A DNA stretch of 64,000 nucleotides, taken from assembly GCA_965215275.1 (NCBI GenBank), contig OZ244044.1, positions 1,344,001 to 1,408,000 on the forward strand, in the 5' to 3' direction. The notes beneath the pieces were generated by a model. It did not search any database. It had not been told where the DNA came from and saw only the letters and a list, made by a program, of their open reading frames with translations. This stretch comes from Thermodesulfobacteriota bacterium. Lineage in GTDB: Bacteria; Desulfobacterota_D; UBA1144; Nemesobacterales; JAJCZQ01. Both the position numbers and the translations under genes were made by a program. Shown here piece after piece: positions 9,073 to 48,700 of the stretch. Positions within the stretch are counted from its first letter, which is position 1; every line of letters begins with the position of its first letter.

Positions 9073-11585
9073 ATGAACATCCTGTTTAGAGTAATACCCC
9101 CCCCCATAAGTTATTAATCCCTTTTTTCTTTCTTCTGTGTTTTGTAAACGTTGGTGCATATGGTCAGACCAGCATTAATAACTGTGACTCCAGTGCAACG
9201 ACCGAAGCTACGTTGAGAGTTCAAGGAGCGGCACACAATGGAAGTTTAGCTGCCGGTGCTGATCCGCATTACTTTCAGACAAACATAAATGAACCTCTTA
9301 TTGTAGATATAGAGGTAAACTTCTCCTTCTCCAGTGATCAGGAATACAGTTTACAGTTGTGTGACAGCAATGATGGTCTGATAGCAAGTACTACTGAAGC
9401 ACATCCAAATGATGACAGGGTAGTAAGGACGGCCACTCTACAAACTCGCTTAAGACAGGGAACGTACTATATAGTTGTGGGAAGCAGTGGTGCTACATCC
9501 TACAATGTTAAAGCTCAATTAGCTGATTCTAATGGACTCTTACAGGCCTGTCTAGATATTACTACCAATTTTCCAAATGATCCCTTGTACGGGTGTCAGT
9601 GGTATCTGAAAGGTCCAGTGGTTGATGTGCTAATAAGTAACAATCGGATATTCCAAACCTCTGGAGAAGATATAGATATAAACATAGAAGAGGTCTGGGA
9701 TGATAGTGTATTTGGAGCTGGAATTAACGTAGCGGTGGTAGATCATGGTATGGACACAGATCATGAGGACCTTGCTGACAATGTGGATACCACACTTTCT
9801 CATGATTACTCTGGAAATGGTGATCTGTACAGTCCTTCAAGTGGTCGCGGCACACGTGTAGCTGGCATTATAGCAGCAGTGGGTGATAACAGCCTTGGAG
9901 TAAGAGGTGTAGCACCTGAGGCAAACATCTACAGTTATAATTTAGCTGATAACTTCAGTGATGCTAATGCAAAGGACGCCATGGTCCGTAATAAGGATAT
10001 AACTGCTGTATCGGTCAACAACTGGGGACCGAAGGACCTGCCGGTTCTTACAGAGGCTTCATCAGAGTGGGAAGAAGGAGTGGAAACTGGTATAAGAGAA
10101 GGGTTTGGTGGTAAAGGAGTGTTTTACGTATGGGCGGCAGGGGACGGAGGTGAAGGATCAGATCAGGCTAATTTTAATGAGTATTCCAGCTACTACGCTG
10201 TAACTACCGTATGTTCAGCAGAGATCAGTAAGATTGCAGTAGGGGAGATCTCTAATGTAGGGGAGGTTGTTAAGAGTTCTTTTTCAGAAGAGGGATACAA
10301 TCTATGGGTATGTGCACCGGGTTCTGATATTGTAACTACCGACAATAACGACGGTTATAGTTTTGAGTTCCCTGGAACGTCAAATTCAGTTGCTGTCGTT
10401 TCAGGAGTAGCAGCACTGATACGGGAGGTAAACAGCGATATTAGCTGGCGGGACCTGAAACTTATCCTGGCAGGTTCAGCCAGCCAGGCAGGCGAGGTAG
10501 CTGGTGGCCGCCTAGGCTGGAAGAGAGGAGAACTTCAATACGGTTCTGATTCAGAGTATTATTTTTACAGTCCAAAGTTTGGTTTTGGCATGGTAGATGC
10601 TGCTGCGGCAGTGGAACTTGCAGGAAGCTGGACCAACGTTCCACCGCAAATGAGACCCGTGACGGTTTCCTCTGGTAATATCAATACGGTTATCCCGGAC
10701 TTCACAACGGGAGGAAACGCGGAAGACGTTTCCGCTGTCTTCACACTGAACGTACCTGATATTGATATACCAGGTACTGAGGTCTTTACGGAATTTATAG
10801 AGATAGGTATCAATTTCACTCACCCTTTCTTTCCTTTTTTAGATATAGAAATAACCTCCCCTGACGGTACTACCGTGTCGAAACTCACTGAGGCATATCC
10901 AGCAGATGCAATATCACATTTATCTGACGGGTCTCTTACTGTAAACGACTTTAAGTACACAGGCAGAGAGCACCGTTTTGGTTTAGCCAATCACCTGGGA
11001 ACAGACCCTGCCGGAGAGTGGACTTTGAAAATAACTAATAATTCACCTGCAGGTACGGGGACCTTACACTCATGGAACATTAAGGTCTATGGTCATATGT
11101 CTGGTGATAAACCGACGTTTAACAGCTGGACGATACCAAGTAAGAATTACGTGCCGGGAACTGCAGTAAAGGAAACACTGCCTGAGGCAACAGCAGGGAA
11201 TGGAGAATTAACCTACAGCCTTTCCCCTCTTTCTTTACCTGTTGGACTTACTTTTAGTGAAACTGACCGAGTGATCAGCGGAACACCAACTGCTGTATCT
11301 TCCGGCAGTTATACATATACGGTAACGGATGAAGATGGAGATACGGACGAGCTCATCTTTACCATCAGGGTAACAACCACGCCACCAGGACCGACAGACC
11401 CACCAACAACAAGACCACCGACACGAAGACCGACACCATCAGGTAGTGATGCAGGTGGAGGAGGATGTGCGGTCTCCGAGCAGAACGAAGCTGCTTCTGA
11501 TCTGCTCACAGCATTGGCATCTCTGATGCTTATACCTGTATCCGTTGTGATAAGAAGGAAGATAAGGTCTCGGATAAAGGCTTAG
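9073..11585 (+). CDS. Kexin-like S8 family surface protein 1 (PPC-like, S8, P domain, one Ig repeat, GGGGC-TM tail); frameshifted at C9 tract; catalytic His replaced by Arg
   Basis: ORF 9213-11585 stays open upstream to 9090 and encodes signal peptide LLIPFFFLLCFVNVGAYGQ, homologous to the paralog 2 N-terminus; nearest usable ATG (9073) is out of frame across C9. Confidence 0.85.
9097..9105 (+). repeat. Poly-C tract (C9)
   Basis: GTAATA-C9-ATAAG. Confidence 0.95.
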
Positions 11586-11715
11586 TAATGCGGTCCTTTC
11601 CAAGCATTTATGAGAGAGGATTACTTCTTTTATATCAGTTATAAGTTCGTTGAGGAGAATGGATGTATTACCGTGTATTGGGCTATAGTATATAATTTCC
11701 TAAAAATTCAGTAGG

Positions 11716-12192
11716 TCATTTATATTTTTTGAACAAGTATATCACTATAATTACCATCATTACAAGCAGTGTTAGCTGCATTATGTAAAAAGAGCTCAGC
11801 TTAAGATATGCAAAGAGCGGACTCACGTACCTTATCAGCCATCCACTGATGATCTCTGTGAACGTTGAAATAAACGACAGCAGTATCAGCACCAGTTTCA
11901 TGTGTGACCTGATAGATGTAAACAGTACAAGGTGAGTAAGGGTTACCAGTAATATAGCCATTGAGAAAAAGTGAAAATGGGCTTCTTCAAGTAGACCTAT
12001 ATAACTTTTTGGAGGTCTGAAAGTCTCCTCGTTGCCTAAGTAAAATTCAACGACCGAGTTGTAGCTGAAACCGATCTGCATGTATAAAAGTATGTTCGTT
12101 ATCCACAGGAACAGGAAAAACAGTATGGTAAAGAAGATTATAATCTTGAGAAAGTCGTTCTTTCTGAGTTCGGAGGATATAAAAAATCTCAT
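11716..12192 (-). CDS. Four-TM inner-membrane protein with HxH motif
   Basis: Hydrophobic helices, LLEEAHFHFFSM..LTHL; last gene of the porin/FMN operon. Confidence 0.75.
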   Translation of the reverse strand: MRFFISSELRKNDFLKIIIFFTILFFLFLWITNILLYMQIGFSYNSVVEFYLGNEETFRPPKSYIGLLEEAHFHFFSMAILLVTLTHLVLFTSIRSHMKLVLILLSFISTFTEIISGWLIRYVSPLFAYLKLSSFYIMQLTLLVMMVIIVIYLFKKYK

Positions 12193-12197
12193 GAATG

Positions 12198-12749
12198 TTA
12201 AGTATGATCACTAAATACGACTTTGTATATAGCGAGGATCTTTCTGGTATTTCTTGAAAACTCGTGAGAAGTAATGGTTGCTCCAGTAATATTGGGGATT
12301 TTTTTTCCCGTTCTCAACTCGTCATTGATACCTTTTCCGTCAAACAGGTCGAGCCATTTGGTTGAAGGCATGTATTCAGGTGGTTCAAAAAAAGCCAGGA
12401 TTTCAGCATTGATCAAATTACCGCCTTTATCGATTAAATACAGTACTGTTTCGGACCTTGTTCTTAAAATGTGCGAGTCGACCACCCCGTAGCCTAGAAC
12501 GTTTGCTTTGCTTCTGAACTCATAAAATATGTGTATTTTTGAGTCCGGAACAGTCCCGGACAGCTTCTTGATTGTCTGCACCTGTTTTTCGGTAAGAAAT
12601 ATGGTTATTTTTTCAATCGAAGTTGCTTTGGGAAATGCAGAGTTCAGCGACTGTTTTAACTGGACGAGCGTCTTGCTTTTTGCGGGTACAGTGAAGAAGA
12701 TGAAAGCCAGTATAAAAACCACCAATGTACAGTTTGTTATTTTATTCAT
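12198..12749 (-). CDS. Secreted FMN-binding domain protein (flavinylation substrate)
   Basis: Signal peptide; C-terminal NITGATITS fits the [S/T]GA[S/T] ApbE flavinylation motif. Confidence 0.85.
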   Translation of the reverse strand: MNKITNCTLVVFILAFIFFTVPAKSKTLVQLKQSLNSAFPKATSIEKITIFLTEKQVQTIKKLSGTVPDSKIHIFYEFRSKANVLGYGVVDSHILRTRSETVLYLIDKGGNLINAEILAFFEPPEYMPSTKWLDLFDGKGINDELRTGKKIPNITGATITSHEFSRNTRKILAIYKVVFSDHT

Positions 12750-12762
12750 CTCTAATATAAGA

Positions 12763-12802
12763 TAAAGAAGGGTTCAAATAATAAGGTCTGAACCCTTCTT
12801 TA
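12763..12802 (-). terminator. Strong hairpin between porin and FMN-binding gene
   Basis: TAAAGAAGGGTTCA (12763-12776) / TGAACCCTTCTTTA (12789-12802), 14-bp perfect stem followed by a T-rich run on the minus strand. Confidence 0.7.
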
Positions 12803-12834
12803 AGAGAGGATAAGGATAAGGTCTGACAGTTTAA

Positions 12835-14271
12835 CTAAAAAACATAGCCCATACCGAAGTTAAATTGGTTGTTATCGGAATTTGCTTCATTGTTCAGCCA
12901 CTGATAATCGGCTTTTACAACCATGTTTGGTATCGGCTTATAATTTACCCCGATCGTATATTCCGTCCTGTCATTTTTAAGATTTCTTTCAAATCCTGTA
13001 GGAACGGATTTTTGAGTGTCATAGGTTTCAAATCTGAAGAATGGAGTAATATCCTTCAGGTATTTGCTCCTTGTTTCCACCTCGGTTAAAACGTTGTAGG
13101 CGATCGTTACATAGTATCCGAACTGTTCTTCTCCAACGGACGCATTGCCTTTGTATTCATTTATCATGTTTATCAGATCTGCATCATCAAGAGAGGTCCA
13201 GACGGCTAAGGTCCTGAGATGAAATCCTCTGTACTTGAAGTTGGCGTCCAGTTCGTACATCGTGAACTTTCCATTAATTTCCTCAGGTACCGGTGCGGTG
13301 TCCGTTCCGGTATTAACTGTCTGGTCCTGTCCCGTGTTACCAAAAAAAACTGAACCACCAATTGTAATACCGGGATAAGGGTCATATTCCAGTCTGCCTA
13401 CAAAGGCGACATCGTTGAAACGTGACCTGTCCCCTCTTGTACGGAGGTCACGGTTGTCCTTTGCCCTGAAACCTCGTGAATCGGTGCTGTTCATGATAAA
13501 CGCCCTGTAAGAAATGTCACCAATGGACTGCAGGTTAAATTCACCGTGAAGACCCAGTCCATTTTCTCTCCACGTGGTCGGTATTATTTTACTTTCGACC
13601 GATGGACGAAATACTCCATAAAAACCCGTTGGTTCATGGATTTCATTAATCAAACCAAAAGGCACAAGTAGCAGACCGCCGCGCACGTTAAAGTAGTCGT
13701 TTATCAAAAAGTCGAGATATGCGAACTCGACCGAGGCTGAACCATCTCCCGGTTCGGGACTGGCTGAATTTCCACCTGTTGAACCGTGTTCAAATTCTAT
13801 CTCTGAGTTGAAAAAGATGTTCTCGGTAAACTTATACCCAGCGTATAATATAACCCTTTGTGCGTCGACAACATTGTCTCCCTCATCAGGTATTTTACTG
13901 ACGACCAACTCTCCATAGCCCCCGATCGACAGACCCTTCCCAGGCTTCAGATATATTTTAGATGCTCCCGGAGCACCACCAAAAACTTCTTTTAATTCAA
14001 TGTCAACGCTGCCACCGGCAGTTTCAGCTTTTACTTTTTTAAACTCTTCCGCCAATATAGATAGATTACGTTCGATCTCACCTAATCTATTATTTTCGGA
14101 CATATTTTTTACTTGCCGAAGTTCCCGCTTTACCTTCTTTAACTGGTACTCCAAGTTTTTTATTCTTTTTTCGCTGTTTCCTGCAAATGCGGGACTTGTA
14201 TCTACAAGCAGAAATGATAAAAGAATAAGTAAACTAAACAACTTAAAAAATTTAGTGTATCTAAAAAACAT
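12835..14271 (-). CDS. Outer-membrane porin (OprO/P-like beta-barrel) with N-terminal coiled coil
   Basis: Signal peptide, coiled coil, IGGYGE, FNSEIEFEHG, VEFAYLD, GLINEIHEPT, terminal GYVF. Confidence 0.8.
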   Translation of the reverse strand: MFFRYTKFFKLFSLLILLSFLLVDTSPAFAGNSEKRIKNLEYQLKKVKRELRQVKNMSENNRLGEIERNLSILAEEFKKVKAETAGGSVDIELKEVFGGAPGASKIYLKPGKGLSIGGYGELVVSKIPDEGDNVVDAQRVILYAGYKFTENIFFNSEIEFEHGSTGGNSASPEPGDGSASVEFAYLDFLINDYFNVRGGLLLVPFGLINEIHEPTGFYGVFRPSVESKIIPTTWRENGLGLHGEFNLQSIGDISYRAFIMNSTDSRGFRAKDNRDLRTRGDRSRFNDVAFVGRLEYDPYPGITIGGSVFFGNTGQDQTVNTGTDTAPVPEEINGKFTMYELDANFKYRGFHLRTLAVWTSLDDADLINMINEYKGNASVGEEQFGYYVTIAYNVLTEVETRSKYLKDITPFFRFETYDTQKSVPTGFERNLKNDRTEYTIGVNYKPIPNMVVKADYQWLNNEANSDNNQFNFGMGYVF

Positions 14272-14303
14272 TTTTAACCTCCAGTAACTTGATTTTTACT
14301 TAT

Positions 14304-14326
14304 ATCTGGATAATATGCATCCAGAT
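14304..14326. promoter_or_regulatory. Palindromic operator candidate upstream of porin operon
   Basis: ATCTGGAT-AATATGC-ATCCAGAT, perfect 8-7-8 inverted repeat 33-55 nt upstream of the start. Confidence 0.5.
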
Positions 14327-14607
14327 TTATGTGCACGGAAATTAACTTTACTAATATAGACCTATAATATCAAGAATTATTTTTATAAAATTAAAAAAAA
14401 TAAAAATGGTTCGAGATCAATAAAAAAGAAGTACAGAGATTATCAGAAGTTCTTATGGTTTTTATAGTTCAAGTTTGTATCTGAAGTCCTGAAAAATATA
14501 GGGGAATAATGTATGGTCTCGTTTATCATAAAGCATCTGACACAATATTATACGAGCATTATCTGAAACTAGTTTGTAAGTTTATTTAGTTTTTAAGTTA
14601 GAAATTT

Positions 14608-15705
14608 ATGAATAAATTTGAAATAGATTATAATAGAATGACAGCGTTTAATCCTGTTGAAACAGATAAAACGGGAGATGGCGATGTTGCAGATATTAAG
14701 ACAACTCCTGATTCTGTTAAGAAATACGAAACAAAAGAAGCTGACGTTTATATCCCTCCCGTTAAGAAGAATAAAGCAAGCAAGGTTGACAGACCTGTTA
14801 AAAGCCAACCAGAAATAGCATTAGATGTTCCTTCTGATGTTTTGGTAGGACAAGCAATTACTTTAGTGCCTGACGATGATTCACTGTCTGTTACTAATGA
14901 CAAATTTGATCTTCCATCTGTAATGGTATTTGGAGTTGTTTTATTATTTGTATTTTTAATATGGTATTTAATTAAAAGTAAATCGGAACATAGTAAATTA
15001 GGTAAGGAAGCAGCTTATTCTGAATCTTATGATTCAAGATATTCTTCCTTCCCTGAAACAAAGCCTGAGCCTAAACGAGACATAATAGACAATGTAAGAG
15101 AAAGACCTACATATGATTTTCAGGATCAGATAAAAATTGAATCATGTCCTATAAGGGAGAAAGGTAAACAAGGAGAACTTAAAACTAAGAGTCTAATTAC
15201 TTCAACTTTACCTGAAGAAAAATATTACTTAATTAATGATGTTACATTTCCAAGAACTTTAGGTACTACTCAAATTGATCATATTTTAGTAAGTCCTTAT
15301 GGTGTGTTTGTTATCGAAACTAAAAACATGTCTGGTTGGATATTTGGTAAAGAAGAAGATAGGAAGTGGACACAGACTTTTAAAAACAAAAAAAGATATT
15401 CTTTCAACAATCCTTTAAGACAAGTGAATTATCATGCCAATTCAGTGGCGTCTTTAATAAACATATATCGTGATAAGATATTTCCTATAGTAGTATTTGC
15501 TGGAGAATCAGAGTTTAAAACTGATATACCTGATAATGTAAAACATACTTATGATTTTATTAGTTACATAAGATCAAAACAATCTATAATTTTAAGTGAG
15601 CGTGATATCAAAAGGATTATAAAAGAAATAGATGAGTTAAGATTACCTTTAGGTATAGAAACGGACATTAAACATATAAAATATGTAAAAGAAATACACT
15701 ACTGA
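14608..15705 (+). CDS. Membrane-anchored NERD nuclease-related domain protein
   Basis: One TM helix, then GKQGE...TTQIDHILVSPYGVFVIETKNMSGWIFG...NPLRQ; AT-rich. Confidence 0.85.
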   Translation: MNKFEIDYNRMTAFNPVETDKTGDGDVADIKTTPDSVKKYETKEADVYIPPVKKNKASKVDRPVKSQPEIALDVPSDVLVGQAITLVPDDDSLSVTNDKFDLPSVMVFGVVLLFVFLIWYLIKSKSEHSKLGKEAAYSESYDSRYSSFPETKPEPKRDIIDNVRERPTYDFQDQIKIESCPIREKGKQGELKTKSLITSTLPEEKYYLINDVTFPRTLGTTQIDHILVSPYGVFVIETKNMSGWIFGKEEDRKWTQTFKNKKRYSFNNPLRQVNYHANSVASLINIYRDKIFPIVVFAGESEFKTDIPDNVKHTYDFISYIRSKQSIILSERDIKRIIKEIDELRLPLGIETDIKHIKYVKEIHY

Positions 15706-17104: not shown

Positions 17105-19435
17105 CTATGTTTTTATCTGAGACCTTATTTTCCTTCTGATCACTGCCGACACGGGTATAAGTATCAGAGACGCCACTGCTCCGAGCAGATCAGAAAAAAT
17201 GTCGTTCTGATCGGAGATCGTACATCCTCCTCCACCGCCAGCTTCAGGATCTGGTGGGGGATTCACCACCCTGATCATGAAGTTCAGTTCAGCCATATCT
17301 CCATCTTCGTCTGTTACCGTATACGTGTAAGTACCAGACGATGCACTCGCAGGTGTCCCACTTATCTCTCGGGTGGCTGCGTCAAAATTCAATCCATCTG
17401 GTAAATCAGGTGTTAAACTATAAGTTAATGTTCCATTCCCTCTCGTCGCCGCAGGCAGTGTTTCTGTTACTGATATACCCTTCAGATACTTCTTATCATC
17501 TATCGTCTCACTGCTAAAGCTTGGCACTGTATCGCCCCTCATATGCCCATAAACTTTAATGCTCCATGAGTGTAAGGTCCCTGTATCTCCAGGATCAGTG
17601 TCAGATATCTTCAAAATCCATTCTCCAGCAGGGTCTTCTCCAAGGTGCTTGGCTGAACCAAAACGATGGGTTTGGTCCGTGTAACCAAGATCATTCTTAG
17701 TGAGTAAAGTGCCGGATATATATGATAACGCTCCTGTTACATGTTCCTCAGTAAACTCCGACACAGTACCATCAGGGGACGTTATTTGTATATTTAACTC
17801 TGGAAAAAAACCGTGAGTGAAATTGAGACTGACCTCAATGAATTTCGTAAAAAGATCATCAGTATCGGGTATGGTCAGGATGAAAGTAATTGTTCCGTCT
17901 ACTTCACCTACAGCGTCGGGGATCGCTGTATTAATATGACCCGAGGAAGCAGTCAGGGTTCTCATCTGTGCAACTCTGTTCCAACTTCCGGCAAGTTCTA
18001 CTGCAGCCTCGGCATCCACTACGCCAAAACCGTACTTTGGATTGTAATTATAACTGTCTGTATCAGAACCGTATTTAAGTGCTACTGTCTCCCAGCCCGG
18101 ATCGGTCGGGTCGTTCCTGCGGGCTGAAGCTGCCAGTATCAGCTTCAGGTCCCGCCAGCTCAGATCACCGTTTACCTCTCTCATCAGTGCTGCTACCCCT
18201 GAAACGATCGGAGCAGAAAATGACGTTCCGCTAAATCTGAAATTATAACGGTCTTTATTATCTGTCGTTGTAATAAGTGAACCTGGAGCACATACCCATA
18301 GATTTACTCCTTCTTCCGAAAAAGAACTCTTCTTTCCAAATCCATCCGTTGAACATACGGTAGTTACAGCGTAGTAGTTGGAAAGTTCTCCAAAATTAGC
18401 CTGAACGAAATCATCATGTCCGTTTCCAGCTGACCAGCTGTAAAAAATTCCTTTACCACCAAAACCTTCTCTGATACCTGTTTCCACTGCCATTTCCCAG
18501 GTTCTCTCAGCAGAGTGAAGACGAAGGTCTCTTGCTCCCCAGCTGTTGCTGGATACTGCAGTTATAGCTCGATTACGTGTCATAGCGTCTGCCCGGTTAG
18601 CGGAACTGTAATTATTTTGCTTTATCAAGTTATAATTATAGATACTTGCCTGAGGTGCTACTCCTCTTATGCCAATTCCATTATCACCCACTGCTGCTAT
18701 AACGCCCGCTACAAGTGTACCGTGATCACTTGAAGGATTAAATACATTACTGTTTCCGGAGTAATCATGATTCAGGCTGGGATTTACATTGGCGACCAGG
18801 TCCTCATGCAAGGGGTCCATACCACTGTCTACCACCGCCACGTTAATTCCTCTGCCGGATATTCCATCGTTCCACACTCCCTCTATGTTTATATCTTCTC
18901 CTTCTGTTATTCTCTGCCCTTTGACCTCCAACTGCCCTGTGTTTTTCAGATGCCACTGACAGCCGTATAAGGGATCATTAAAATTGGTAGTAACTTTCCC
19001 ACAATCGGATAACAGATCGTTGTAATCAGTATCTGTTGCAACTGAAAGCTGGTAACTGACAGCACCACTGCTTCCCACAACTATATAGTAAGTTCCAGGT
19101 CTGAGGCGAGCTGGGATATTATTAATACTATCTGCTATCTTAGTACTGCTTGCTATCAGATCATCGTTACCGTCACAAAGCTGTAAACTGTATACGAAGT
19201 TATCATTGGTGAAGGTTGTCTCTATGTTTACGTTAACTTCGGATGCTGTGTCTATCTGAAAATAATTCAGTCCACCGGCACTTTCAAAACTTCCATCGTG
19301 TGCCGCTCCGTCCACTGTCAGCGTGGCTTCAATCGTTGCACTGGGGTCACAATTATTATCACTGATCTGACCATATGCATTTATGGACATACAACATAGA
19401 AACAAGAAAAAGGGAATTATATACAGGAAGTTCAT
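17105..19435 (-). CDS. Kexin-like S8 serine protease 2 (signal, PPC-like, S8, P domain, Ig repeat, GGGGC-TM tail); intact triad
   Basis: VAVVDSG, DHGT, SAGNG, SGTSFSAP, LSWRDLK, P domain GEWILKI..GTLHSWSI. Confidence 0.92.
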   Translation of the reverse strand: MNFLYIIPFFLFLCCMSINAYGQISDNNCDPSATIEATLTVDGAAHDGSFESAGGLNYFQIDTASEVNVNIETTFTNDNFVYSLQLCDGNDDLIASSTKIADSINNIPARLRPGTYYIVVGSSGAVSYQLSVATDTDYNDLLSDCGKVTTNFNDPLYGCQWHLKNTGQLEVKGQRITEGEDINIEGVWNDGISGRGINVAVVDSGMDPLHEDLVANVNPSLNHDYSGNSNVFNPSSDHGTLVAGVIAAVGDNGIGIRGVAPQASIYNYNLIKQNNYSSANRADAMTRNRAITAVSSNSWGARDLRLHSAERTWEMAVETGIREGFGGKGIFYSWSAGNGHDDFVQANFGELSNYYAVTTVCSTDGFGKKSSFSEEGVNLWVCAPGSLITTTDNKDRYNFRFSGTSFSAPIVSGVAALMREVNGDLSWRDLKLILAASARRNDPTDPGWETVALKYGSDTDSYNYNPKYGFGVVDAEAAVELAGSWNRVAQMRTLTASSGHINTAIPDAVGEVDGTITFILTIPDTDDLFTKFIEVSLNFTHGFFPELNIQITSPDGTVSEFTEEHVTGALSYISGTLLTKNDLGYTDQTHRFGSAKHLGEDPAGEWILKISDTDPGDTGTLHSWSIKVYGHMRGDTVPSFSSETIDDKKYLKGISVTETLPAATRGNGTLTYSLTPDLPDGLNFDAATREISGTPASASSGTYTYTVTDEDGDMAELNFMIRVVNPPPDPEAGGGGGCTISDQNDIFSDLLGAVASLILIPVSAVIRRKIRSQIKT

Positions 19436-19450
19436 CAGTGATCTTAATGG

Positions 19451-30230: not shown

Positions 30231-32162
30231 ATGAAAGATAGAGCAGAACCAAAATATAAGATGACCGTTGCGGGTCAGCTATTCAAGCATCTTGGATTGC
30301 AGATGTATTCTGGAGCAGTGCCTGCTATTGTTGAACTTATATCAAACGCCTACGATGCTATGGCAAAAAATGTGTGGATTGAGATTCCCGTCGGTCGGTC
30401 AATTAAGCCGAATGACGTGATAGAAGTGCGCGACGATGGCCACGGAATGAGTTTTGAAGAATGCAATAAATTATATTTGTCAGTTGGCAGGGACAGACGT
30501 TCAGATGAACAAGATTCGACCAGTTTTTACAAAGGCTTACCGGTTCGAAAGGTGCAAGGAAGAAAGGGAATTGGAAAACTTGCGGGATTTGGTATTGCTA
30601 ACGTTATCGAGGTTAAAACTATCAAGAGTGGCAAGGTCGCAAACTTTTCACTTGACTTTGAAGAACTGACTCGCAGTTCAAAATTTGCGGACGAGAACGG
30701 ATATTCTCCCAAAATTCTTTCGTGTGACGGTGGAGAAACAACTGAAGCTCCTGGAACTACTATTAAATTATCCGAATTAAAGATTTCAAAGGCCATAAAT
30801 GAAGATGATTTTAAGAAAAGCATCGCCCGGCGTCTGCTTGTTCTTGACGAGGATTTTACCGTCTCTGTTAATAAAACGGCAATTTCAAGGCAGGAAATTC
30901 CGTTTCAAGTCCGATTCCCGGAAACAAAGGGCGGATGGGAAACTTCCTCGTTAGAAAACGGAAAGGAAGTTCAATGGTGGGCAGGTTTCTGCGAAAAAAC
31001 AATTCCAAACGAAGAACAGCGGGGTTTTGTGGTTTACGTTAGAGGAAAATTAGCACAAACTCCTTGGTTTTTTGATCTAAGTGGTGGTGTTTGGGGACAG
31101 CATGGAATGCAATATCTTACGGGAGAAGTTAAAGCAGATTTTCTAGATGAAGACATAGATTTAATTGCCACGGATAGAGGGTCCGTTCGTTGGGAAGACC
31201 CCGTTGCCGTTTCCTTGAAAAAATGGGGACAGAAAAAAATTAAAGAACTGCTGGAATCTTGGACTGACAAGAGACGAGAGGAAAAAACTAAAAGTCAGAA
31301 AATATCAGCTTATTTGGAAAAAGCTGACAAACTACCAGATAGAGAGAGAAAAATTTTTAAGAAGGTCGTCGACCGAATTTGTGACATTCCTCAAATTGAT
31401 AAAGATAAAGAAGGTAAAGACATTGCAGATGACCTTGTTGAGTTTGTCTATAATGCACTGACTAACCGGAGTTTTCTTGAAACGATAAGAAAATTAAACG
31501 CAACCTCCACGGAAGACATCCAAGAATTAAATAAAGCTCTTTCTGAATGGGATATTTTAGAGTTGGTACATACTGCTAATCTTGTTGTAGGCAGGGTAGA
31601 GGTTATTCGTACATTTAAACAATTGATTAAAAGTAAGGCTAGAGAAAAGCCGGACATGCAAGACTATATTTGTAAATACCCATGGCTAATTGATCCGAAA
31701 TGGACTCTCCTTACACATGAACAACAGCTTGATACTATACTAAAGGAAGAATTTAATATAATGGAAACTAGTGGCGATGCAGGACGACAAAGACCTGATT
31801 TTTTTTGCATGGGCGATGGACTGAACACTGCTTACGTGGTGGAAGTTAAACGACCAGGCACATTAGTAGGGAAAGAGGAATTTAATCAACTCCAAGAGTA
31901 TGTTTTCTTTTTGCGAAGGCAACTTATTGATGAGGCAGATAGTAATAATAGAAGGACGACAGTTAAGGGATTGTTAATTGCGGATAGAATTAAACCAGAT
32001 GAAAAAATGCATGCAAAAGCAGCCCAAGACGCGAATACTTTTAATATCCGCACTTGGAATAATTTACTAACCTCAGCAGAAACGTTACATAAAGAGTTTC
32101 TCAAGGTTATTAAAAAACGGGCCCCTGTTGATGATCCTAGAATTGTCCATCTAGAAGAGTGA
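30231..32162 (+). CDS. GHKL (MORC/Hsp90-like) ATPase fused to PD-(D/E)xK nuclease
   Basis: ELISNAYDA, DDGHGM, GRKGIGKLA, GTTI; C-terminal RPDF..VVEVKRP..QLQEY. Confidence 0.85.
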   Translation: MKDRAEPKYKMTVAGQLFKHLGLQMYSGAVPAIVELISNAYDAMAKNVWIEIPVGRSIKPNDVIEVRDDGHGMSFEECNKLYLSVGRDRRSDEQDSTSFYKGLPVRKVQGRKGIGKLAGFGIANVIEVKTIKSGKVANFSLDFEELTRSSKFADENGYSPKILSCDGGETTEAPGTTIKLSELKISKAINEDDFKKSIARRLLVLDEDFTVSVNKTAISRQEIPFQVRFPETKGGWETSSLENGKEVQWWAGFCEKTIPNEEQRGFVVYVRGKLAQTPWFFDLSGGVWGQHGMQYLTGEVKADFLDEDIDLIATDRGSVRWEDPVAVSLKKWGQKKIKELLESWTDKRREEKTKSQKISAYLEKADKLPDRERKIFKKVVDRICDIPQIDKDKEGKDIADDLVEFVYNALTNRSFLETIRKLNATSTEDIQELNKALSEWDILELVHTANLVVGRVEVIRTFKQLIKSKAREKPDMQDYICKYPWLIDPKWTLLTHEQQLDTILKEEFNIMETSGDAGRQRPDFFCMGDGLNTAYVVEVKRPGTLVGKEEFNQLQEYVFFLRRQLIDEADSNNRRTTVKGLLIADRIKPDEKMHAKAAQDANTFNIRTWNNLLTSAETLHKEFLKVIKKRAPVDDPRIVHLEE

Positions 32163-32183
32163 CCTTCAAGGAGGTGATTTAAG

Positions 32184-33314
32184 TTGCAGCATTCGCGGAT
32201 TAAGTCCACGGACGTAAAAAAACCAATTGCTATAGATCTTTTTGCTGGATGTGGTGGATTGACCCAAGGTATGAGGGATGCTGGTTTCAACGTTGAAGCA
32301 GCAGTGGAAATAGACGCCGAGTCCGCATGTACGTATAGACGTAATCACCGCGAAACTCATTTGATAGAAAAGGACATTAGGGACGTATCGGTTAGGGAAT
32401 TAAACGGTTTGGTGGACAGCCGGCAAATTTCTCTCTTGGCAGGTTGTGCCCCTTGTCAAGGTTTTTCCTCTTTGACAAACAAGTATAATAAAACGGACCC
32501 TCGCAACGGTCTTCTTCTTGTAATGGCTGCACTCATTAAAGATATTCGTCCCCTCTCCGTGATTATGGAAAACGTTCCAGGCATGGACAGGAAAGGTGAG
32601 AAGATTTTAGATCAATTCATTCATTTTATATCAAATCTTGGATATAAATGTTTATGGGACATTGTGCAGATGGCTGATTTTGGAGTTCCGCAGTCTCGTC
32701 GCAGGTTGGTATTGCTTGCCGGTCTTGGATTTGAGATTGCCTTGCCTAAACCAACTCATGCAAAGCGTCCGAAATGTGGGACGAGTCTGCGTCCCTGGGT
32801 TACGGTCAGGAAAGCTATTGGAGGTATGAAAACGCCAATTACGTTAAGGGAAGCTCTGACCAATGGTGATCCACAAGAGTATAATTGGCACGTCGTCCGA
32901 AACGTTCAGCCTCAAGTAAAAAAACGTTTGGATGCTGCTGAACCGGGACAAACATGGCGAGCCATTGACGAGGTGATCCGTCCTAAGTGTCATCAAAATA
33001 ACTACAACGGATTTACGAACACGTACGGAAGAATGTCATGGGATCAGGTTTCTCCGACCATCACCAGTGGATGCACCACGGCGTCCATGGGGAGATTCGG
33101 GCATCCCGATAAATCTAGATACACGATTTCGGTCCGTGAAGCAGCACTGCTTCAAACTTTTCCAGACAACTATAAATTCGCAACTCAAAAAATAGGAACC
33201 GTTTGTAAACTTATTGGCAACGCGGTTCCGCCTCTCTATGCAAAGATAATTGCCGAAAGAGTCTTGGCTACACTTAAAGATGCTTCTTGTCAAAAAGTAA
33301 AAGTGGAGCAATGA
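32184..33314 (+). CDS. dcm: DNA (cytosine-5)-methyltransferase
   Basis: [55 protein letters not shown] before TTG. Confidence 0.95.
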
Positions 33315-33763
33315 GTCGGTGGCCTGGGGACGCCCAGCAGGAACGCACGTCTTTTGGAAATTTGACTCGAGGTGAACTCATGTCCCGGGTGCGTAGCACG
33401 GGCAACCAAACTACGGAAAAGAAACTTGCCCGGTTGCTACGCGAGGCGAGATTGAAAGGGTGGCGTCGGCATCAACCACTTCTTGGGCGACCCGATTTTG
33501 TTTGGCGAGACAGGAAAGTTGCCGTTTTTGTTGATGGATGTTTTTGGCACGGTCACACTTGTAGGAACCTCACTCCAAAAAAGAATACGAGAGCGTGGCA
33601 AGATAAGATTTTAAGAAACAAGACTAGGGATAGGCACAATAACCGTGTTCTTCGTCAACAGGGATGGAAAGTGATACGTATTTGGGAATGTCAATTAACT
33701 AAGGTTCCTGATCAATGTCTGAAGCGGATACGGCGCAAACTTGAGGAAACTCAAAAATTTTAA
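33311..33763 (+). CDS. vsr: Very short patch repair endonuclease
   Basis: [39 protein letters not shown] overlaps the methylase stop. Confidence 0.93.
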
Positions 33764-42246: not shown

Positions 42247-43500
42247 ATGGACATGTCGGTACTGAACAAGGTTGACCCTGAGGTCGCGGCAGCTATAAGG
42301 TCGGAAGTAGAAAGACAGGAATGGAAACTTGAACTCATTGCATCTGAGAACTACGTAAGCGAGGCTGTACTTGAGGCGCTCGGGACGGTCCTTACGAACA
42401 AATACGCCGAGGGACTGCCTGGAAAGCGTTATTACGGTGGATGTGAGTTTGTTGACGTTGCCGAGGACCTTGCAAGAGAAAGAGCATTGAAACTGTTCGG
42501 TGCTGATGCCGTGAACGTGCAGCCTCATTCAGGCGCACAGGCGAACATGTCCGTGTTCTTTGCAGCCGTTAAACCGGGAGACACGGTAATGGGAATGGAC
42601 CTTGCTCATGGAGGCCATCTTACACACGGAAGTTCGGTGAACTTTTCGGGAAGACTTTACAATATCGTTTCCTACGGAGTTACGGAAGATACCAACTTAA
42701 TAGATTATGATGAGGTCAGAAAGACGGCGTTAAAAAACAGCCCGAAGCTTATCATAGTGGGCTGGAGCGCCTATCCCAGAGACATTGACTTTTTGAAATT
42801 TCGCGAGATCGCGGACGAGTGTGGAGCTCTTCTCATGGCAGACGTTGCGCATCCTGCGGGCTTGATCGTGGCAGGTCTGTATTCTGATCCGGTCCCGCAC
42901 TGTGATTTTGTTACAACCACGACCCATAAAACCCTTCGCGGTCCTCGTGGTGGCATGGTGATGATGAAAAGCGAACACGCGAAACTGATAAACAGCAGGG
43001 TTTTTCCCGGTACGCAGGGTGGACCGCTCATGCACGTTATCGCGGCAAAGGCAGTGGCTTTTCATGAGGCAATGCAGCCTGAGTTCAACGACTATCAGGA
43101 ACGGGTCGTAAAAAACGCAAGACGATTGGGAGAGAAACTGACCGCCTGCGGATTCAGGCTGGTTTCCGGCGGAACCGATAACCATCTCGTTCTGGTTGAT
43201 TTGAGAGAGACGGACATTACAGGCAAACTTGCTGAGGAATCCCTGGAAAAAGCAGGAATAACGGTAAATAAAAATGCCATACCGTTTGATCCGAGACCAC
43301 CGGCCATCGCCAGTGGAATAAGGATCGGGACGGCTGCTGTGACGACCCGTGGAATGGGTGAGATGGAAATGGAACAGATCGCCGCGTGGATCGCTGAAGC
43401 GTTTGAGAACAATGACAATGAAACCGTTCTGAACAGGATAAAAGACGAGGTGAAACAGCTGTGCAGCCAATTTCCGATTTACAGACATAAACTGACTTAG
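42247..43500 (+). CDS. glyA: Serine hydroxymethyltransferase
   Basis: [33 protein letters not shown]. Confidence 0.98.
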
Positions 43501-43502
43501 TT

Positions 43503-43961
43503 ATGAAATGTCCACACTGCATGTCCGATATCAGGGTAGTAGACTCAAGGAACAGCAAGGATGGGACTTCCGTTCGCAGACGGCGTAAATGTCTGAGCTG
43601 TAACAAAAGGTTTACAACTTACGAAAGAATAGAAGACCTTAACTTCGTGATCGTGAAAAAAGACGGCAGACGTGAACCCTTTGACAGAAAAAAGGTAATA
43701 GACGGACTTAAGAAGGCCTGTGAAAAAAGACCGATAAGCGTGGACAGCATTGAGAATTTAGTTGCGGACGTAGAAAGAGAACTTCAGGTGCGGGGAGAAA
43801 AAGAGGTGAAAAGCCAGGAGATCGGAGAGAAAATGATCGCCAAGCTCTATGAACTCGATGAAGTTGCCTACGTCAGATTTGCCTCGGTCTACAGATCTTT
43901 TAAAGACGTGAACCAGTTTATGGACGAACTTAAGGATCTGCTCAAGGAAAAAGAAGGTTAA
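43503..43961 (+). CDS. nrdR: Transcriptional repressor NrdR
   Basis: MKCPHC, RRRRKC..C..RFTTYE, VAYVRFASVY. Confidence 0.97.
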   Translation: MKCPHCMSDIRVVDSRNSKDGTSVRRRRKCLSCNKRFTTYERIEDLNFVIVKKDGRREPFDRKKVIDGLKKACEKRPISVDSIENLVADVERELQVRGEKEVKSQEIGEKMIAKLYELDEVAYVRFASVYRSFKDVNQFMDELKDLLKEKEG

Positions 43962-43978
43962 TTCGTCCCTGTCGTGAA

Positions 43979-44746
43979 ATGCTGATAGACACCCACGCTC
44001 ATTTAGTTTCACTTGAAGACGTTGAAAGTGCCGTGAACAGGGCGTATGAAGCCGGAGTAGCAAAGATCATATCAGTTTCCACTGGTCTTGATTCAAGTTA
44101 TGCAACTATTGAAATAGCGGACACGTACGAATCCGTTTTTGCCGCAGTTGGTATCCATCCCCACTCTGCTTCTCAGTATACCGAAGAAACTTTTTCAAAG
44201 ATTGAAGATACCGTATCGCATAAAAAAGTTGTGGCAGTTGGTGAAACGGGGCTGGATTATCATTACATGAATTCTCCAAAGGAGATACAGATTGAATCGT
44301 TTCGGGCTCATATAGACATGGCAACCAGGTTTACCCTGCCTTTCGTGGTTCACGTGAGAGAAGCGGATGAGGATATGCTGAGTATTTTAAGAGAAAGCGA
44401 CCTGAATGAAAATCCAGGGGTTATTCACTGTTTTTCTGGAAATTACGAGACGGCCAAACAGTATCTTGAACTGGGTTTTTTCATATCTTTTTCAGGTATC
44501 GTTACCTTTAATCGTGCCGCGGAGGTCAGAGAAGCGGCGAAAAATATCCCGTTTGACAGGGTACTGATCGAAACGGATTCCCCGTACCTTGCTCCGGTTC
44601 CGCTCCGGGGGAAGAAAAATGAACCAGCCAATGTTAAGTACGTTGCACAGGTGGTTGCAGAGGTCAGGGGCGTTGATATACAGACCCTTCAGGAGCAGCT
44701 TTTAAAAAATACCTTGGAGCTCTTCCCCGGGATTGAGCGGTGTTAA
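43979..44746 (+). CDS. tatD: TatD family hydrolase
   Basis: DTHAHL, GIHPH, GETGLDY, VIHCFSG, ETDSPYL. Confidence 0.95.
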   Translation: MLIDTHAHLVSLEDVESAVNRAYEAGVAKIISVSTGLDSSYATIEIADTYESVFAAVGIHPHSASQYTEETFSKIEDTVSHKKVVAVGETGLDYHYMNSPKEIQIESFRAHIDMATRFTLPFVVHVREADEDMLSILRESDLNENPGVIHCFSGNYETAKQYLELGFFISFSGIVTFNRAAEVREAAKNIPFDRVLIETDSPYLAPVPLRGKKNEPANVKYVAQVVAEVRGVDIQTLQEQLLKNTLELFPGIERC

Positions 44747-44758
44747 CAGTTTTCTGAA

Positions 44759-45703
44759 ATGTCTCGAAAACCCAGGATCGGTATAACAACAGGAGACCCT
44801 AACGGGATCGGTCCCGAAGTTGTACTTAAGTCGGTCAATGATCCCAGAATAGAAAGTCTGTGTGAACCCGTGATCTACGGGACTGAAAAAGTTTTAAGAA
44901 AAGCCACGCTTAGCACGGGACTCTGTATTGGATCTGAAATAGCTTATAAAGACGATTTCAGGGATTTTGAAATAAGTCCAGGATCAAGTTGTGCAGAAGC
45001 TGGCAAGGTAAGTTTATTTTACATTGAGCAGGCGGTTAAAGATGTTTTAAACAAAAAGACAGACGCGATCGTTACTGCACCTATAAGCAAGGAATCAATA
45101 CGTCTTGCAGGTTCAAAGTATTCCGGTCACACGGATATGCTTAAAGAACTGACGGGGGCAAAAGACGCGGTGATGCTTTTTGACGGTGGACCTTTTAGAG
45201 TTGCCCTGGTGACCATTCACGTTGCACTGTCCGAAGTCCCTTCTCTTATAACTAAAGAGAACGTGTTAAACGTCATAAAGGTATGCAGTCGGGAGCTGAA
45301 ACGGAAGTTTCACGTTCCAGATCCGAGGATCGTTGTCTGTGGACTCAATCCTCATGCAGGTGAGGCAGGAGCTTTTGGCAGGGAAGATATAGAGGAAATA
45401 GAACCGGCGGTAGGAGCAGCAGAAAAAGAAGGTATTAAGGTTGAGGGGCCACTGCCAGCAGACACTGTTTTTTATTATGCAAGTAGAGGTGTTTGTGACC
45501 TTGTTATTGCAATGTATCACGATCAGGGACTTGCTCCGTTTAAAATGTTAGCCTTTGATTCAGGTGTGAATGTTACTTTGGGCCTGCCTGTTGTACGAAC
45601 GTCTCCAGATCATGGAACTGCTTTTGACATTGCGTGGAAAGGTATTGCCAAACCCGAAAGCATGATTAACTCCATAAGACTCGCAGTTGAACTGTTGAGA
45701 TGA
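44759..45703 (+). CDS. pdxA: 4-hydroxythreonine-4-phosphate dehydrogenase
   Basis: GDPNGIGPE, GHTD, GLNPHAGE, MYHDQG, RTSPDHGTAFDIA. Confidence 0.96.
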   Translation: MSRKPRIGITTGDPNGIGPEVVLKSVNDPRIESLCEPVIYGTEKVLRKATLSTGLCIGSEIAYKDDFRDFEISPGSSCAEAGKVSLFYIEQAVKDVLNKKTDAIVTAPISKESIRLAGSKYSGHTDMLKELTGAKDAVMLFDGGPFRVALVTIHVALSEVPSLITKENVLNVIKVCSRELKRKFHVPDPRIVVCGLNPHAGEAGAFGREDIEEIEPAVGAAEKEGIKVEGPLPADTVFYYASRGVCDLVIAMYHDQGLAPFKMLAFDSGVNVTLGLPVVRTSPDHGTAFDIAWKGIAKPESMINSIRLAVELLR

Positions 45704-45767
45704 AGAGAATAATCCGGACAGCCTGACGTGGCACTTATCATTAAACAAAAGACGCTGTTCGTTATAC

Positions 45768-45796
45768 TTGACATTGCAGTAGAACAGAAGTAAAGT
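45768..45796 (+). promoter_or_regulatory. Putative sigma70 promoter of S8 paralog 3
   Basis: TTGACA (45768-45773), 17 nt, TAAAGT (45791-45796); homologous to region 9001-9075. Confidence 0.55.
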
Positions 45797-48700
45797 ATGA
45801 AAAACATGATGAATTCTAATCCCCCCCCCCCATCAATGTCGTAGTCCAGTAAGCGGTTCCTGCTGGAACAACGGACAGTTCATACTTTCCCTTATCTTTT
45901 TTCTTCTGTGCATAATGGTCATAGCTGCAAAAGGACAGAGCGGCCTGGAAGAAACATTATCTGAATGCAGAAGCATCAGTGCAGACACGGAAGATCCGCT
46001 ATACGGATGTCAGTGGCATCTGAAAAATACAGGACAGCTTGGGGCTGTAACTGCCTCCGGAGAAGATATAAACATAGAAGGGGTCTGGGATGATAATGTG
46101 TTCGGTGCTGGAATAAACGTAGCGGTGGTAAGTGATGGTATGCAGACGGGTCATGAGGACCTTGCTGATAATGTAAATACCAGACTGAACCATGATTATT
46201 CAGGAAGCGGTAACGTATACGACCCTTCAAAAGCTCATGGTACACGTGTATCGGGAGTTATAGCAGCAGTGGGTGATAACAGCCTTGGAGTAAGAGGTGC
46301 AGCACCAAAGGCAGGCATCTATGGTTATAATTTAGCTGGCAACTTCAGTAATGCTAACGCAAAAGATGCAATGGCCCGTAATAAGGAAATAACAGCTGTA
46401 TCCGTTAATGGCTGGGGACCGGATGACGGATATTCTCTTCATCAGGCTTCAGCTTCCTGGGAAGAAGGAGTGGAAGAGGGTATAAGGGAAGGGTTTTATG
46501 GTAAAGGAGTGTTTTACGTCTGGGGAGCAGGGGACGGGCATGAGAATAACGATCAGGCCAATTTTTCTGAATATTCAAATTACTACGGCGTAACTGCCGT
46601 GTGTTCAACGGACGGTTCTGGAAAGAAGAGCTTATTTTCAGAAGAGGGAGTAAATCTTTGGGTATGTGCTCCAGGAGAACATATTACAACCACTGACAAT
46701 AACGATGGATATGTTTTTGATGCGAGTGGAACGGCATATTCAGCAGCACAGGTTTCAGGGGTAGCAGCACTGATGAGAGAAGTGAACGGAGATCTGAGCT
46801 GGAGGGATATAAAGCTTATATTTGCGGGTTCAGCACGGCAGAACGACGTTTCTGACCTGAGCTGGAGGACTGGAGCAGTAAAATACGGTTCTGATACGGA
46901 AAGATATAATTATAATCCTAAGTATGGTTTTGGAGTAGTTGACGCAGAAGAAGCAGCAGAACTTGCCAGAAGCTGGAAAAGTGTGGGTGAAATGAGGACC
47001 GTTACCACCTTTTCTGATAAAGAGATAACAATTCCTGATGGAGAAGGAGAGGCAGACGGGGTCCTTGTTTCCAGACTTATGATACCGGACCTTGAAGAGG
47101 TAACATTTACGGAGTTCACAGAAGTGGAACTTGTTCTTTCGTGTGATTGCTTACAGAACCTAAATATACAGATAACCTCTCCTTCTGGGACAACGTCGGA
47201 ACTTGTGCGGGAGGTTGCCGGGGAGTCTGTAAGGGGATCTTCAGCTGAAGAAGAAAACTGCGTCAGTTACCTGAGAAGAACACATCGTTTCGGGTCGGCT
47301 AAGCACCTCGGAGAAGACCCTTCCGGAGAATGGATCCTTAAAATATCCGATACTGCTTCCGGAGATGCAGAAGATGGAGAAAATACTTTTACCTTACACT
47401 CCTGGAGCATTAAGGTATATGGGCATAAGAAGGGTGATACTGTACAGGACTTGACTAAGGAGATAACTCCTAAACTTCCTCCAGGCGGTTTTGGCACCTC
47501 TCAGATCGATAGAGTTTATACAGTAGAGGAAGCAATAACACCATTAACGCTGCCTGAGGCATCGGTAGGTACTCCGCCAATTACTTATAGTTTTGATTCA
47601 TTACCTGATGGATTGGCATTTGATCCTGACACCCGAGTGTTAAGCGGAACACCAACTACTGTAAAGGATAGGACCGCTTATATATATAGGGCTACTAATA
47701 GTGAGGCAACGAACTTTATCTTTGTTCAGATTACAGTAAAAGACCTGCCGCCAACCTTTAATGATACGATAGGTAATAAGGAGTACATAAAAGGGGTTCC
47801 GATAACACCAGTAACACTGCCTAAGGCAACAAGAGGGAATGGAGACTTAACATACAGTTTAGCCCCTGATCCATCTGCTGCTGGATTGACATTTGATCCT
47901 GTTACACGAGTGTTAAGCGGAACACCAACTACTGCAACGAGCAGTACTACTTATACATATACGGTAACAGACGGAGATAACGTTACTGATGATTTGACGT
48001 TCAATATCACAATACATAATGACACTTCTCCAACCTTCTGGGAGACGATAGATGGTCAGGAATACATAGCAGGAAGTCAGATAACACCAGTAACGCTGCC
48101 TGTGGCACAATCAGGGAATACTCCATTAACTTACAGTATAACTCCTCGTTTACCTGATGGATTGAGTTTTAACAGGAACACTCGAACGATAAGTGGAACA
48201 CCAACTACTGCAATGTCTCAGGCTACTTATACATATACAGCAACAGACGTAGATGACGATCCGGCTGAGTTAACGTTTGATATTACTATATCAGCAGACA
48301 CAGATCCGACCTTCGGCAGTGAAATGATAGATAATAAGGTGTACGTTAACGGCATTACAGCAGTAATGGAAACACTGCCTGAAGCAACGGGAGGGAATGC
48401 TCCTTTAACTTACAGCTTAAGCAGTGGTTTACCTGCTGGACTGGACTTTGATACAACCACCCGAGTGTTAAGTGGAACACCCAATGTTGTTGATCCAAGT
48501 GTACTTCCTGTAACTGTTACTCATACGTATACGGTAGAAGACGCAAATGGAGATACTGACAATCTGACGTTCAGTATCACTACAGAAGCAGACAGCGATC
48601 CGGACTTCAGCAGTGTGACAATACCTGATCGGGTGTACACGGGGAGATCAATAACGCTACCCGAGGCAACGGGAGGGAATCCACCAGTCATGTACAGTAT

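Follow-up and report, generated by a model that had tools for sequence, protein, structure and literature searches.

Poly-C tract-bearing kexin-fold pseudoproteases in a Thermodesulfobacteriota genome: maintenance by selection and a probably shared loss of the catalytic triad

Introduction

A stretch of 64,000 nucleotides from the genome of an uncultured Thermodesulfobacteriota bacterium (GTDB lineage Desulfobacterota_D; UBA1144; Nemesobacterales; JAJCZQ01; assembly GCA_965215275.1, contig OZ244044.1, positions 1,344,001 to 1,408,000 of the forward strand), referred to here as the window, encodes three paralogous proteins with the kexin-like fold of the S8 peptidases. Two of them have lost residues of the Asp-His-Ser catalytic triad and carry, near their start, a run of cytosines that sets the reading frame. 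The locus thus raises the question of whether such genes are decaying or kept, whether the triad was broken once or twice, and what a bacterium may gain from proteases that would not cut. Separately, both S8 pseudoproteases (CspC, CspA) and a subtilase phase-varied at a poly-C tract (NalP) are already known, while no paper joining the two in a 50-gene bacterial repertoire was found in a literature search that left most subscription journals outside its reach. In the analysis described below, the two defective paralogs are pseudoproteases kept by purifying selection and not decaying genes. The account that is favoured, with some reserve, is that they belong to a set of about 50 kexin-fold genes with a defective triad, likely serving as non-cutting binding heads, which are switched by their C runs and displayed on the cell surface.

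Catalytic residues of the three paralogs

Paralog 1 (P1; family locus L40; 9073..11585, plus strand) comprises a signal peptide, an N-terminal domain resembling PPC, the S8 domain, a P domain, one He_PIG domain of the immunoglobulin (Ig) type and a tail with a Gly-Cys motif, a transmembrane helix and a basic end. Paralog 3 (P3; L42; 45797..49046, plus strand) has a signal peptide, S8 and P domains, five He_PIG domains and the same kind of tail, and is without the N-terminal domain of about 120 residues that the other two have. Paralog 2 (P2; L41; 17105..19435, minus strand), with one He_PIG domain, has neither a tract nor the promoter-tract cassette described below, C and G runs of at least 6 being absent from both the gene and the region upstream of it. 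PF00082 (S8) and PF01483 (P_proprotein) score above their cut-offs in all three, with furin and Kex2 as the top matches.

The catalytic positions were set by aligning P2 to furin (phmmer E 1e-37, spanning the VVD, HGT, AGN and GTS motifs), using the furin residues which we take to be catalytic. In P2 they fall at 18829 (Asp), 18724 (His), 18424 (oxyanion Asn) and 18223 (Ser) on the minus strand, and the triad is intact (class D-H-N-S, in the order Asp, His, oxyanion and Ser positions). P1 is of class D-R-D-S: Arg (CGC, 9846..9848, plus strand) occupies the His position, as does Arg (CGT or CGC) in 17/57 copies in the genome, while the other key codons are Asp GAT at 9741, oxyanion Asp (AGD) GAC at 10143 and Ser TCA at 10380. 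P3 is of class S-H-D-A, with Ser (AGT, 46131..46133, plus strand; VVSDG) at the Asp position, a codon also used by most copies that have lost all three residues (triple-dead copies), His (CAT, 46236..46238, plus strand), oxyanion Asp (AGD) GAC at 46533 and Ala (GCA, 46734..46736, plus strand) at the Ser position, the last in common with the seven D-R-x-A copies and L6. The triad is therefore Asp-Arg-Ser in P1 and Ser-His-Ala in P3, and complete in P2 only. All motifs quoted in a first-pass annotation of this DNA (RGT and AGD in P1; VVSD, AGD and GTA in P3; VVD, HGT, AGN and GTS in P2) were recovered in place. Its description of both long open reading frames as stop-free apart from the tract, with the P domain kept, also stands, the frames matching S8, P_proprotein and He_PIG; the "Ig repeats" it gave to both fit P3, whereas P1 has a single Ig domain. 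AGD was considered as an inactivating change and rejected, given that PC2, an active convertase, is described as having Asp at the oxyanion position (PMC7144994), so that AGD alone is no lesion.

The P1 lesion is no assembly slip, since contig pieces of sequencing runs X1 and X2 show 0 differences over the codon region 9752-9881 (one of the two may be the source sample). Short pieces of runs X3, X5 and X6 likewise show 0 differences over the P3 codons, although such pieces can stem from paralogs. In P2, Val and Gly (FVQANFGE) occupy two sites that in most copies are taken by Asp and by an acidic or polar residue (DQANFxE); these sites align to furin residues that are presumably S1 and calcium ligands. 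P2 may thus not be a typical convertase, judging from its sequence, and an intact triad is in any case no proof of proteolytic activity (PMC7200643). The first-pass view of P2 as the one constitutive protease is overstated: its triad is intact and it is tract-free, but seven copies in the genome have an intact triad and three of these carry a tract.

A family of 57 copies kept by selection

The genome, a single contig of 1.99 Mb that is 99.87% complete, holds 57 loci of this kexin-like family, covering 8.6% of its bases. The triad is intact in 7/57 and defective in 50/57, the defective copies comprising 10 of class D-R-D-S (the P1 type), 7 D-R-x-A, 1 N-gap-D-A, 1 S-H-D-A (P3) and 29 that have lost all three residues; the remainder are L47, without the Asp and His region, and L16, in which a G13 run shifts the frame and Gly stands at the Asp position. 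Between the S8 frame and the tail, 46/50 dead and 5/7 intact copies are free of stops.

Ratios of nonsynonymous to synonymous divergence (dN/dS) were taken by pairwise Nei-Gojobori comparison over the S8 and P core, as ratios of means, leaving out L16, L35 and L47, with L6, L13 and P3 assigned to none of the groups and a single pair excluded for its dS below 0.02. The ratio is 0.28 for triple-dead copies (28 copies, 377 pairs), 0.39-0.40 for the P1 type (10 copies, 45 pairs) and 0.40 for D-R-x-A copies (7 copies, 21 pairs), against 0.41 for intact copies (6 copies, 15 pairs), which argues that the dead copies are not decaying. The window paralogs behave alike in individual comparisons, with dN/dS of 0.069/0.239 for P1 against paralog L3 (Fisher p 1e-12) and 0.161/0.533 for P3 against L7 (Fisher p 4e-19). 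Beyond this genome, 11 triad-defective proteins from other assemblies were found, most of them in the same classes. A catalytic residue has thus been lost while fold and reading frame are kept under purifying selection, as expected of pseudoproteases, and the neutral evolution (dN/dS near 1) that the first-pass annotation had named as the sign of decaying genes was not observed in these comparisons between paralogs. In a search for orthologs at a threshold of 1e-20, the P2 core matched 0/4 genomes of the same taxonomic family, while 2/40 relatives gave weak matches of about 35% identity, and a metagenome scan returned 3 distant loci only.

A different explanation for this conservation would be that the P1-type copies (Asp-Arg-Ser, oxyanion Asp) keep a weak or altered catalysis, the dead state being confined to the classes that have decayed further. 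In S8 enzymes the triad His acts as general base, and its replacement speaks against such activity, as do seven other Arg-bearing copies that have lost Ser too and the 29 copies without any of the three residues, which are selected at least as strongly. In favour, neither the Asp and Ser residues nor the cleft vary in 10/10 genome copies and in 6/6 from other assemblies, and PC2 functions with Asp at the oxyanion position (PMC7144994). On balance, residual catalysis is considered improbable.

Poly-C tracts and their variation

The leader cassette of P1 (9034..9105, plus strand) consists of promoter-like boxes TTGACA at 9034 and TAAAAT at 9058, an ATG at 9073 and a C9 tract at 9097-9105, and that of P3 (45768..45831, plus strand) of TTGACA at 45768, TAAAGT at 45791, ATGs at 45797, 45806 and 45809 and a C11 tract at 45821-45831. 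In both genes the tract lies between the ATG and the core of the signal peptide and leaves the two out of frame, while C10 would place them in frame; frame-setting tracts of this kind, within the 5' coding region, characterize slipped-strand phase-variable genes. A similar promoter cassette was matched at 48/57 family loci, and two C tracts occur in series within the leader at 28 of them. Among loci with a C tract, an ATG is in frame across the last tract in 11/50 and out of frame in 39/50, L13 being scored as out although it has an ATG of its own. The genome has 139 C or G runs of at least 8, of which 78 lie at leaders of the kexin-like family, and runs of exactly 7 are absent where about 48 would be expected from base composition; the tracts are therefore not due to chance. 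The other 61 long runs include many at methyltransferase-like, tetratricopeptide repeat (TPR), glycosyltransferase-like and lipoprotein genes, as named from motifs. Loss of mismatch repair was considered as the cause of slippage and rejected, MutL and MutS both being present with open frames.

At the start of P3, four of 17 public runs were compared, from three studies, and their bridging contigs have C11 in X2 and C9 in X3, X5 and X6, with 0 other differences; the source sample may be X2, and rare variants are lost from contigs. P3 tract length thus changes between samples, within otherwise identical flanks. This result also bears on the notion that the dead copies are functionless duplicates or decaying pseudogenes and their frameshifts homopolymer assembly errors. 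Such a notion would agree with the large share of out-of-frame loci in the assembly and with 4/50 dead copies that do not reach the tail. It is contradicted by dN far below dS, by public-run contigs that have C9 or C11 at P3 and never the in-frame length, by the gap at 7 in the run-length spectrum and by the recurrence of the same dead classes in the 11 proteins from other assemblies, so that it is already largely refuted and hardly credible.

The first-pass annotation had proposed that dead-triad status would go with tract presence across the family, as is indeed the case: a tract is found in 50/50 dead copies (a leader C run of 8-13 in 49, and G11 plus G13 in L16) and in 3/7 intact ones. All dead copies are thus tract-bearing, yet the intact copies are not all tract-free. 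The association of tract with triad status in a 2x2 Fisher test (p 2e-7) was set aside, the copies being related and only two origins underlying the link. Of the intact copies, four (P2 among them) are tract-free, and in L13 a C9 run lies in the leader, ahead of the gene's own ATG. L19 (G000:C1 609924) carries an internal C9 in the Ig stalk, where slippage would cut off the anchor, and L22 (G000:C1 670057), also triad-intact, has an internal C17 at the start of the P domain. L16 (G000:C1 ~518958, minus strand) is a twin of the intact L13, in which a G13 run just before the Gly-for-Asp change shifts the frame and a G11 run lies beside the start codon. Tract-bearing relatives without S8 occur at G000:C1 627310 and 1649137, one composed of three tandem PPC-like domains and the tail, the other of one PPC-like domain, one Ig domain and the tail.

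One inactivation or two

In distant homologues the Asp-His-Ser triad is kept in 57/57, and in genomes of other species it is kept at 20/24 loci, the other 4 being partial, with an upstream C or G run of at least 7 in 0/24. When 12 of these sequences served as outgroup in a tree from which L16 and L47 had been left out, all 53 dead rows formed one clade (Shimodaira-Hasegawa-like approximate likelihood ratio test 97), requiring one change. In a more careful tree (53 rows, triple-dead copies thinned, L16 added) the dead clade is supported at 97/99 and L13 plus L16 (100/100) are its sister group at 91/84, while forcing L16 into the dead clade is rejected by the approximately unbiased (AU) test (p-AU 0.007). 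These trees indicate two origins of the combination of dead triad and tract in the family, one of which P1 and P3 share.

P3 itself is a mosaic, with alignment columns ~0-160 and 300-370 showing mostly 88-97% DNA identity to D-R-x-A copies and the bulk of the remaining columns 86-98% identity to triple-dead copies; its Asp and Ser lesions are common to two other dead subclades. Around its His codon, which lies within a segment otherwise nearest to Arg-bearing copies, 8/147 bases differ from the Arg-bearing L26 and at least 31 from any intact copy, and P0019, the nearest database protein (87%), has Arg at this position. The His column requires a minimum of 3 changes with Arg ancestral against 4 with His ancestral (the latter being our own count on the tree), although gene conversion blurs such counts. 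The comparison suggests that the His of P3 is more likely a reversion from Arg.

The first-pass annotation had described the two tract-controlled paralogs as independently inactivated. According to this history, the ancestor of P1 and P3 had a full triad, as L13 does, and each lineage lost different residues after gaining the switch. It can draw on the fact that no triad lesion is common to the two, P1 keeping Asp and Ser and P3 keeping His. AU tests on the His segment gave p values of 0.11 and 0.51, and a placement of the P3 segment outside the Arg-bearing D-R-x-A group was not rejected at 0.51; moreover, L16 provides an example of a separate loss accompanied by its own tract, given its exclusion from the main dead clade. 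Against these points stand the additional change required at the His column, the Arg in P0019, the Asp and Ser lesions that P3 shares with other dead subclades, and the Ser codon of the triple-dead copies, AGT, which is one base from CGT and two from CAT. The full-triad ancestor is accordingly regarded as somewhat unlikely, and "independently inactivated" as probably wrong: with both genes in one all-dead clade, a single shared inactivation of P1 and P3 is probable from these alignments and trees. P1 and P3 are then probably not independent events, and the claim made at the level of the window is less special than it first looked.

In the history that would follow from a shared inactivation, the change of the oxyanion Asn to Asp and the acquisition of the promoter-tract cassette would have come first, followed by one His-to-Arg change and then by the loss of Ser and Asp during expansion, with gene conversion shuffling the copies.

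Fold, pseudo-cleft and variable parts

The model of P1 has a mean predicted local distance difference test (pLDDT) score of 81 and the furin/Kex2 fold (Foldseek E 3e-34, template modelling score 0.85 on the target). Its N-terminal beta-sandwich (9165..9548, plus strand; pLDDT 88) has a predicted PPC or collagen-binding-domain fold and a dN/dS of 0.78 among P1-type copies. Compared with the collagen-binding domain of ColG (5iku), it gives Z 13.6 and a root mean square deviation of 1.6 over 101 aligned residues, Z ranging from 12.8 to 13.6 over collagenase domains, while a search of the ESM Atlas yielded no more than a PPC lead, its matches agreeing weakly.

Variation among the 10 P1-type copies is unevenly distributed. 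Windows around the Asp, Arg, S1, oxyanion and Ser sites show dN of 0-0.05 and dS of 0.1-0.3, while in three loops and the N-terminal domain up to 76% of residues differ. On the plus strand, loop 1 (9615..9689; mature residues ~151-175) has a mean residue difference of 0.53-0.70, with low pLDDT at 147-169, loop 2 (10215..10289; ~351-375) one of 0.47-0.72 and loop 3 (10455..10559; ~431-465) one of 0.37-0.76. Other classes vary elsewhere, including near the cleft.

A candidate route to the cell surface

The C-terminal tail, in which a Gly-rich part and an invariant Cys precede a hydrophobic helix and a basic cluster, is found in 51/57 copies and has the features of the Cys-CTERM type. The only CPBP/Rce1-like protease gene of the genome (PF02517; G000:C1 680830-681114; L076:1477-2121, minus strand) lies directly upstream of family copy L23. 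Type II secretion is represented by a GspC-D-E-F-G-K operon, in which GspD, E, F and G score above cut-off. In Myxococcus, myxosortase is reported to cleave MYXO-CTERM tails and the proteins are anchored at the surface, with type II secretion as the predicted carrier (PMC11980579). The MYXO-CTERM, JDVT-CTERM and Synerg-CTERM systems are described as similar in build, with an invariant-Cys tail that has a transmembrane helix and a basic end, alongside both a CPBP protease and type II secretion (PMC11980579; bioRxiv 2023.06.07.544157); unlike these, the family studied here reaches no curated CTERM or myxosortase model. The CPBP protease and the Gly-Cys tail of the 51 copies may, from their sequences, define an unnamed Cys-CTERM sorting system. 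The GlyGly-CTERM/rhombosortase system was also considered and rejected, as no rhomboid-family protease was found: PF01694 had no match in the 99.87% complete genome, with a control at 14/14. LpxC likewise had no match in the genome.

Proposed display of switchable binding heads

In the mechanism proposed for P1, P3 and their defective relatives, slippage to C10 would restore the frame from the ATG to the signal peptide. The product would be exported by Sec, its Cys tail cleaved by the single myxosortase-like protease, and the protein, carried by type II secretion, anchored outside the cell on its Ig stalk. There the remodelled cleft, the variable loops and the PPC-like domain would bind host matrix or mask the cell, each cell showing a changing subset. 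The tail, the myxosortase-like gene, the type II secretion operon and the N-terminal domain of collagen-binding type lend support to a predicted surface display and a putative binding function; the adhesin or decoy role proposed in the first-pass annotation is likewise putative.

A number of observations weigh against this account. Both P3 tract lengths recovered are OFF, a C10 (ON) allele was seen for neither P1 nor P3, and the P1 tract was unbridged in the four runs compared at that site. Tracts also occur in three of the seven intact copies (in the leader of L13 and internally in L19 and L22), and the link between tract and triad rests on two origins, the main clade and L16. The dN/dS values were taken between paralogs and not orthologs. 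Tail and CPBP protease score below every curated cut-off, Synerg-CTERM giving E 0.024-0.15 and the myxosortase core model 65 bits against a cut-off of 100. The fold that the N-terminal domain shares with collagenase domains shows no function, and the domain is present in intact copies too while missing from P3 and the triple-dead copies, so that it cannot be the binding part for all copies.

Part of the evidence on function comes from a second genome of the same genus (G001, 80% complete), in which no S8 domain was found and one contig spans the sites of P1 and P2, where only ~85 and ~110 bases stand. It has instead lipoprotein-like genes with He_PIG stalks and mostly leucine-rich repeat (LRR) heads (L071:5575, L072:740, L073:627, L074:774), and both domain types were confirmed by Pfam in the two proteins submitted to it. 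At 4/4 regions fetched, which had been picked for having a run and an Ig match, a TTGACA box is followed by a run of G9-10. In L071 the G run fills the spacer before TATAAT, likely a promoter-spacing switch. LRR_8 had no match in the genome under study. A switchable stalk with an exchangeable non-catalytic head fits a binding or masking role, as far as the two sets of sequences can be compared.

The dead copies might alternatively be decoys or regulators that capture phage, immune proteins or the protease inhibitors of a host, or that act on the intact paralogs as modulators. The nearly invariant cleft of the P1 clade is as expected for one conserved ligand, and the other tracts at methyltransferase-like and TPR genes, named from motifs, fit phage or host pressure. 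Precedents are described in both directions, CspC and CspA being S8 pseudoproteases that regulate their active paralog CspB (PMC7200643) and inactive SMIPP-S paralogs of the scabies mite binding complement proteins (PMC4031079). Display on a stalk fits better than protease regulation, however, because dead copies differ in stalk length, with anything between 0 and about 6 Ig units, tract-bearing members without S8 exist, and G001 uses LRR heads with no S8 match. Decoys or regulators of this kind are for these reasons thought rather unlikely, and binding heads on a switchable stalk are preferred.

Comparison with known systems

The kexin-like family belongs to none of the NalP, CspC and SMIPP-S families, the last of which has a chymotrypsin-type fold. 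Its likeness to subfamily S8B (furin, 4omc; Kex2, 2id4; Aeromonas sobria ASP, 3hjr) lies in the S8 fold followed by a P domain. It differs from these enzymes in the broken triad of P1 and P3, in a PPC-like domain or almost nothing before S8, with no prodomain detected, and in the Ig stalk, Cys sorting tail, 57 copies and slippage tracts. CspC and CspA of Clostridioides difficile resemble it in combining the S8 fold and a substituted triad with a place beside an active paralog, and are thought to bind ligands; the residues substituted in CspC show strict conservation, as does Arg in the P1 clade (PMC7200643). They are nevertheless two soluble spore proteins of subfamily S8A, for which the portion of the source available describes no switch or surface tail (PMC7200643). 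The NCBIfam model for CspC, NF040808, gave 27 and 15 bits against a cut-off of 675 and no match for P3, so that a CspC-type germinant receptor is not indicated. NalP of Neisseria meningitidis is a subtilisin-like surface protein with slipped-strand phase variation at a coding poly-C (PMC5472700), but it is an active autotransporter, whereas the switched copies here are almost all dead, number about 50 and would use another export route. The SMIPP-S proteins are alike in the expansion of inactive paralogs, yet they are eukaryotic and secreted, with no homopolymer switch reported in the accessible text (PMC4031079).

Other features of the window

Further runs and islands were observed in the window. 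The longest run of the genome, C26, lies at 57695-57720, upstream of Nmad2/Nmad3 genes (57950-59988), and is followed by an apparent decayed methyltransferase start. A G14 run at 61020-61033 stands early in an open reading frame from 60967, seemingly out of frame with a 212-codon downstream frame, and likely marks a contingency gene. A NERD-domain gene of low guanine and cytosine content at 14608-15705 is absent from the matching G001 site. ATPase-like, cytosine-methyltransferase-like and Vsr-like genes stand in a row at 30231-33763, likely a restriction-modification island as judged from translations only. By eye, no mobile-element boundary was evident in the flanks among the sequence listed.

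Implications for the organism and the family

The organism is probably host-associated, and LRR proteins are among the eukaryote-like proteins described for sponge symbionts (PMC11706023); that the host is a sponge is a guess from Dehalococcoidia homologues and the LRR proteins. A more ambitious reading, put forward tentatively and with less confidence than the account of binding heads itself, is that every stage by which an enzyme was turned into a variable coat is preserved in one genome. The starting point, a kexin-like protease with relatives in other marine bacteria, would first have gained a promoter and poly-C switch and then lost its triad stepwise (D-H-S, D-R-S, D-R-A, none) while growing to 50 copies, which recombine and keep the pseudo-cleft constant while the loops vary, in the manner of an antibody scaffold. 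The sister species would have reached the same design with LRR heads and G runs, pointing to a general switchable stalk-plus-head system among host-associated bacteria that are uncultured. This one 2-Mb genome has intermediate steps of the catalytic decay next to one another, so that whether the loss of catalysis came before or after new regulation and binding is testable in a single organism. The family also points to surface variation in the style of pathogens in an uncultured, probably host-associated bacterium.

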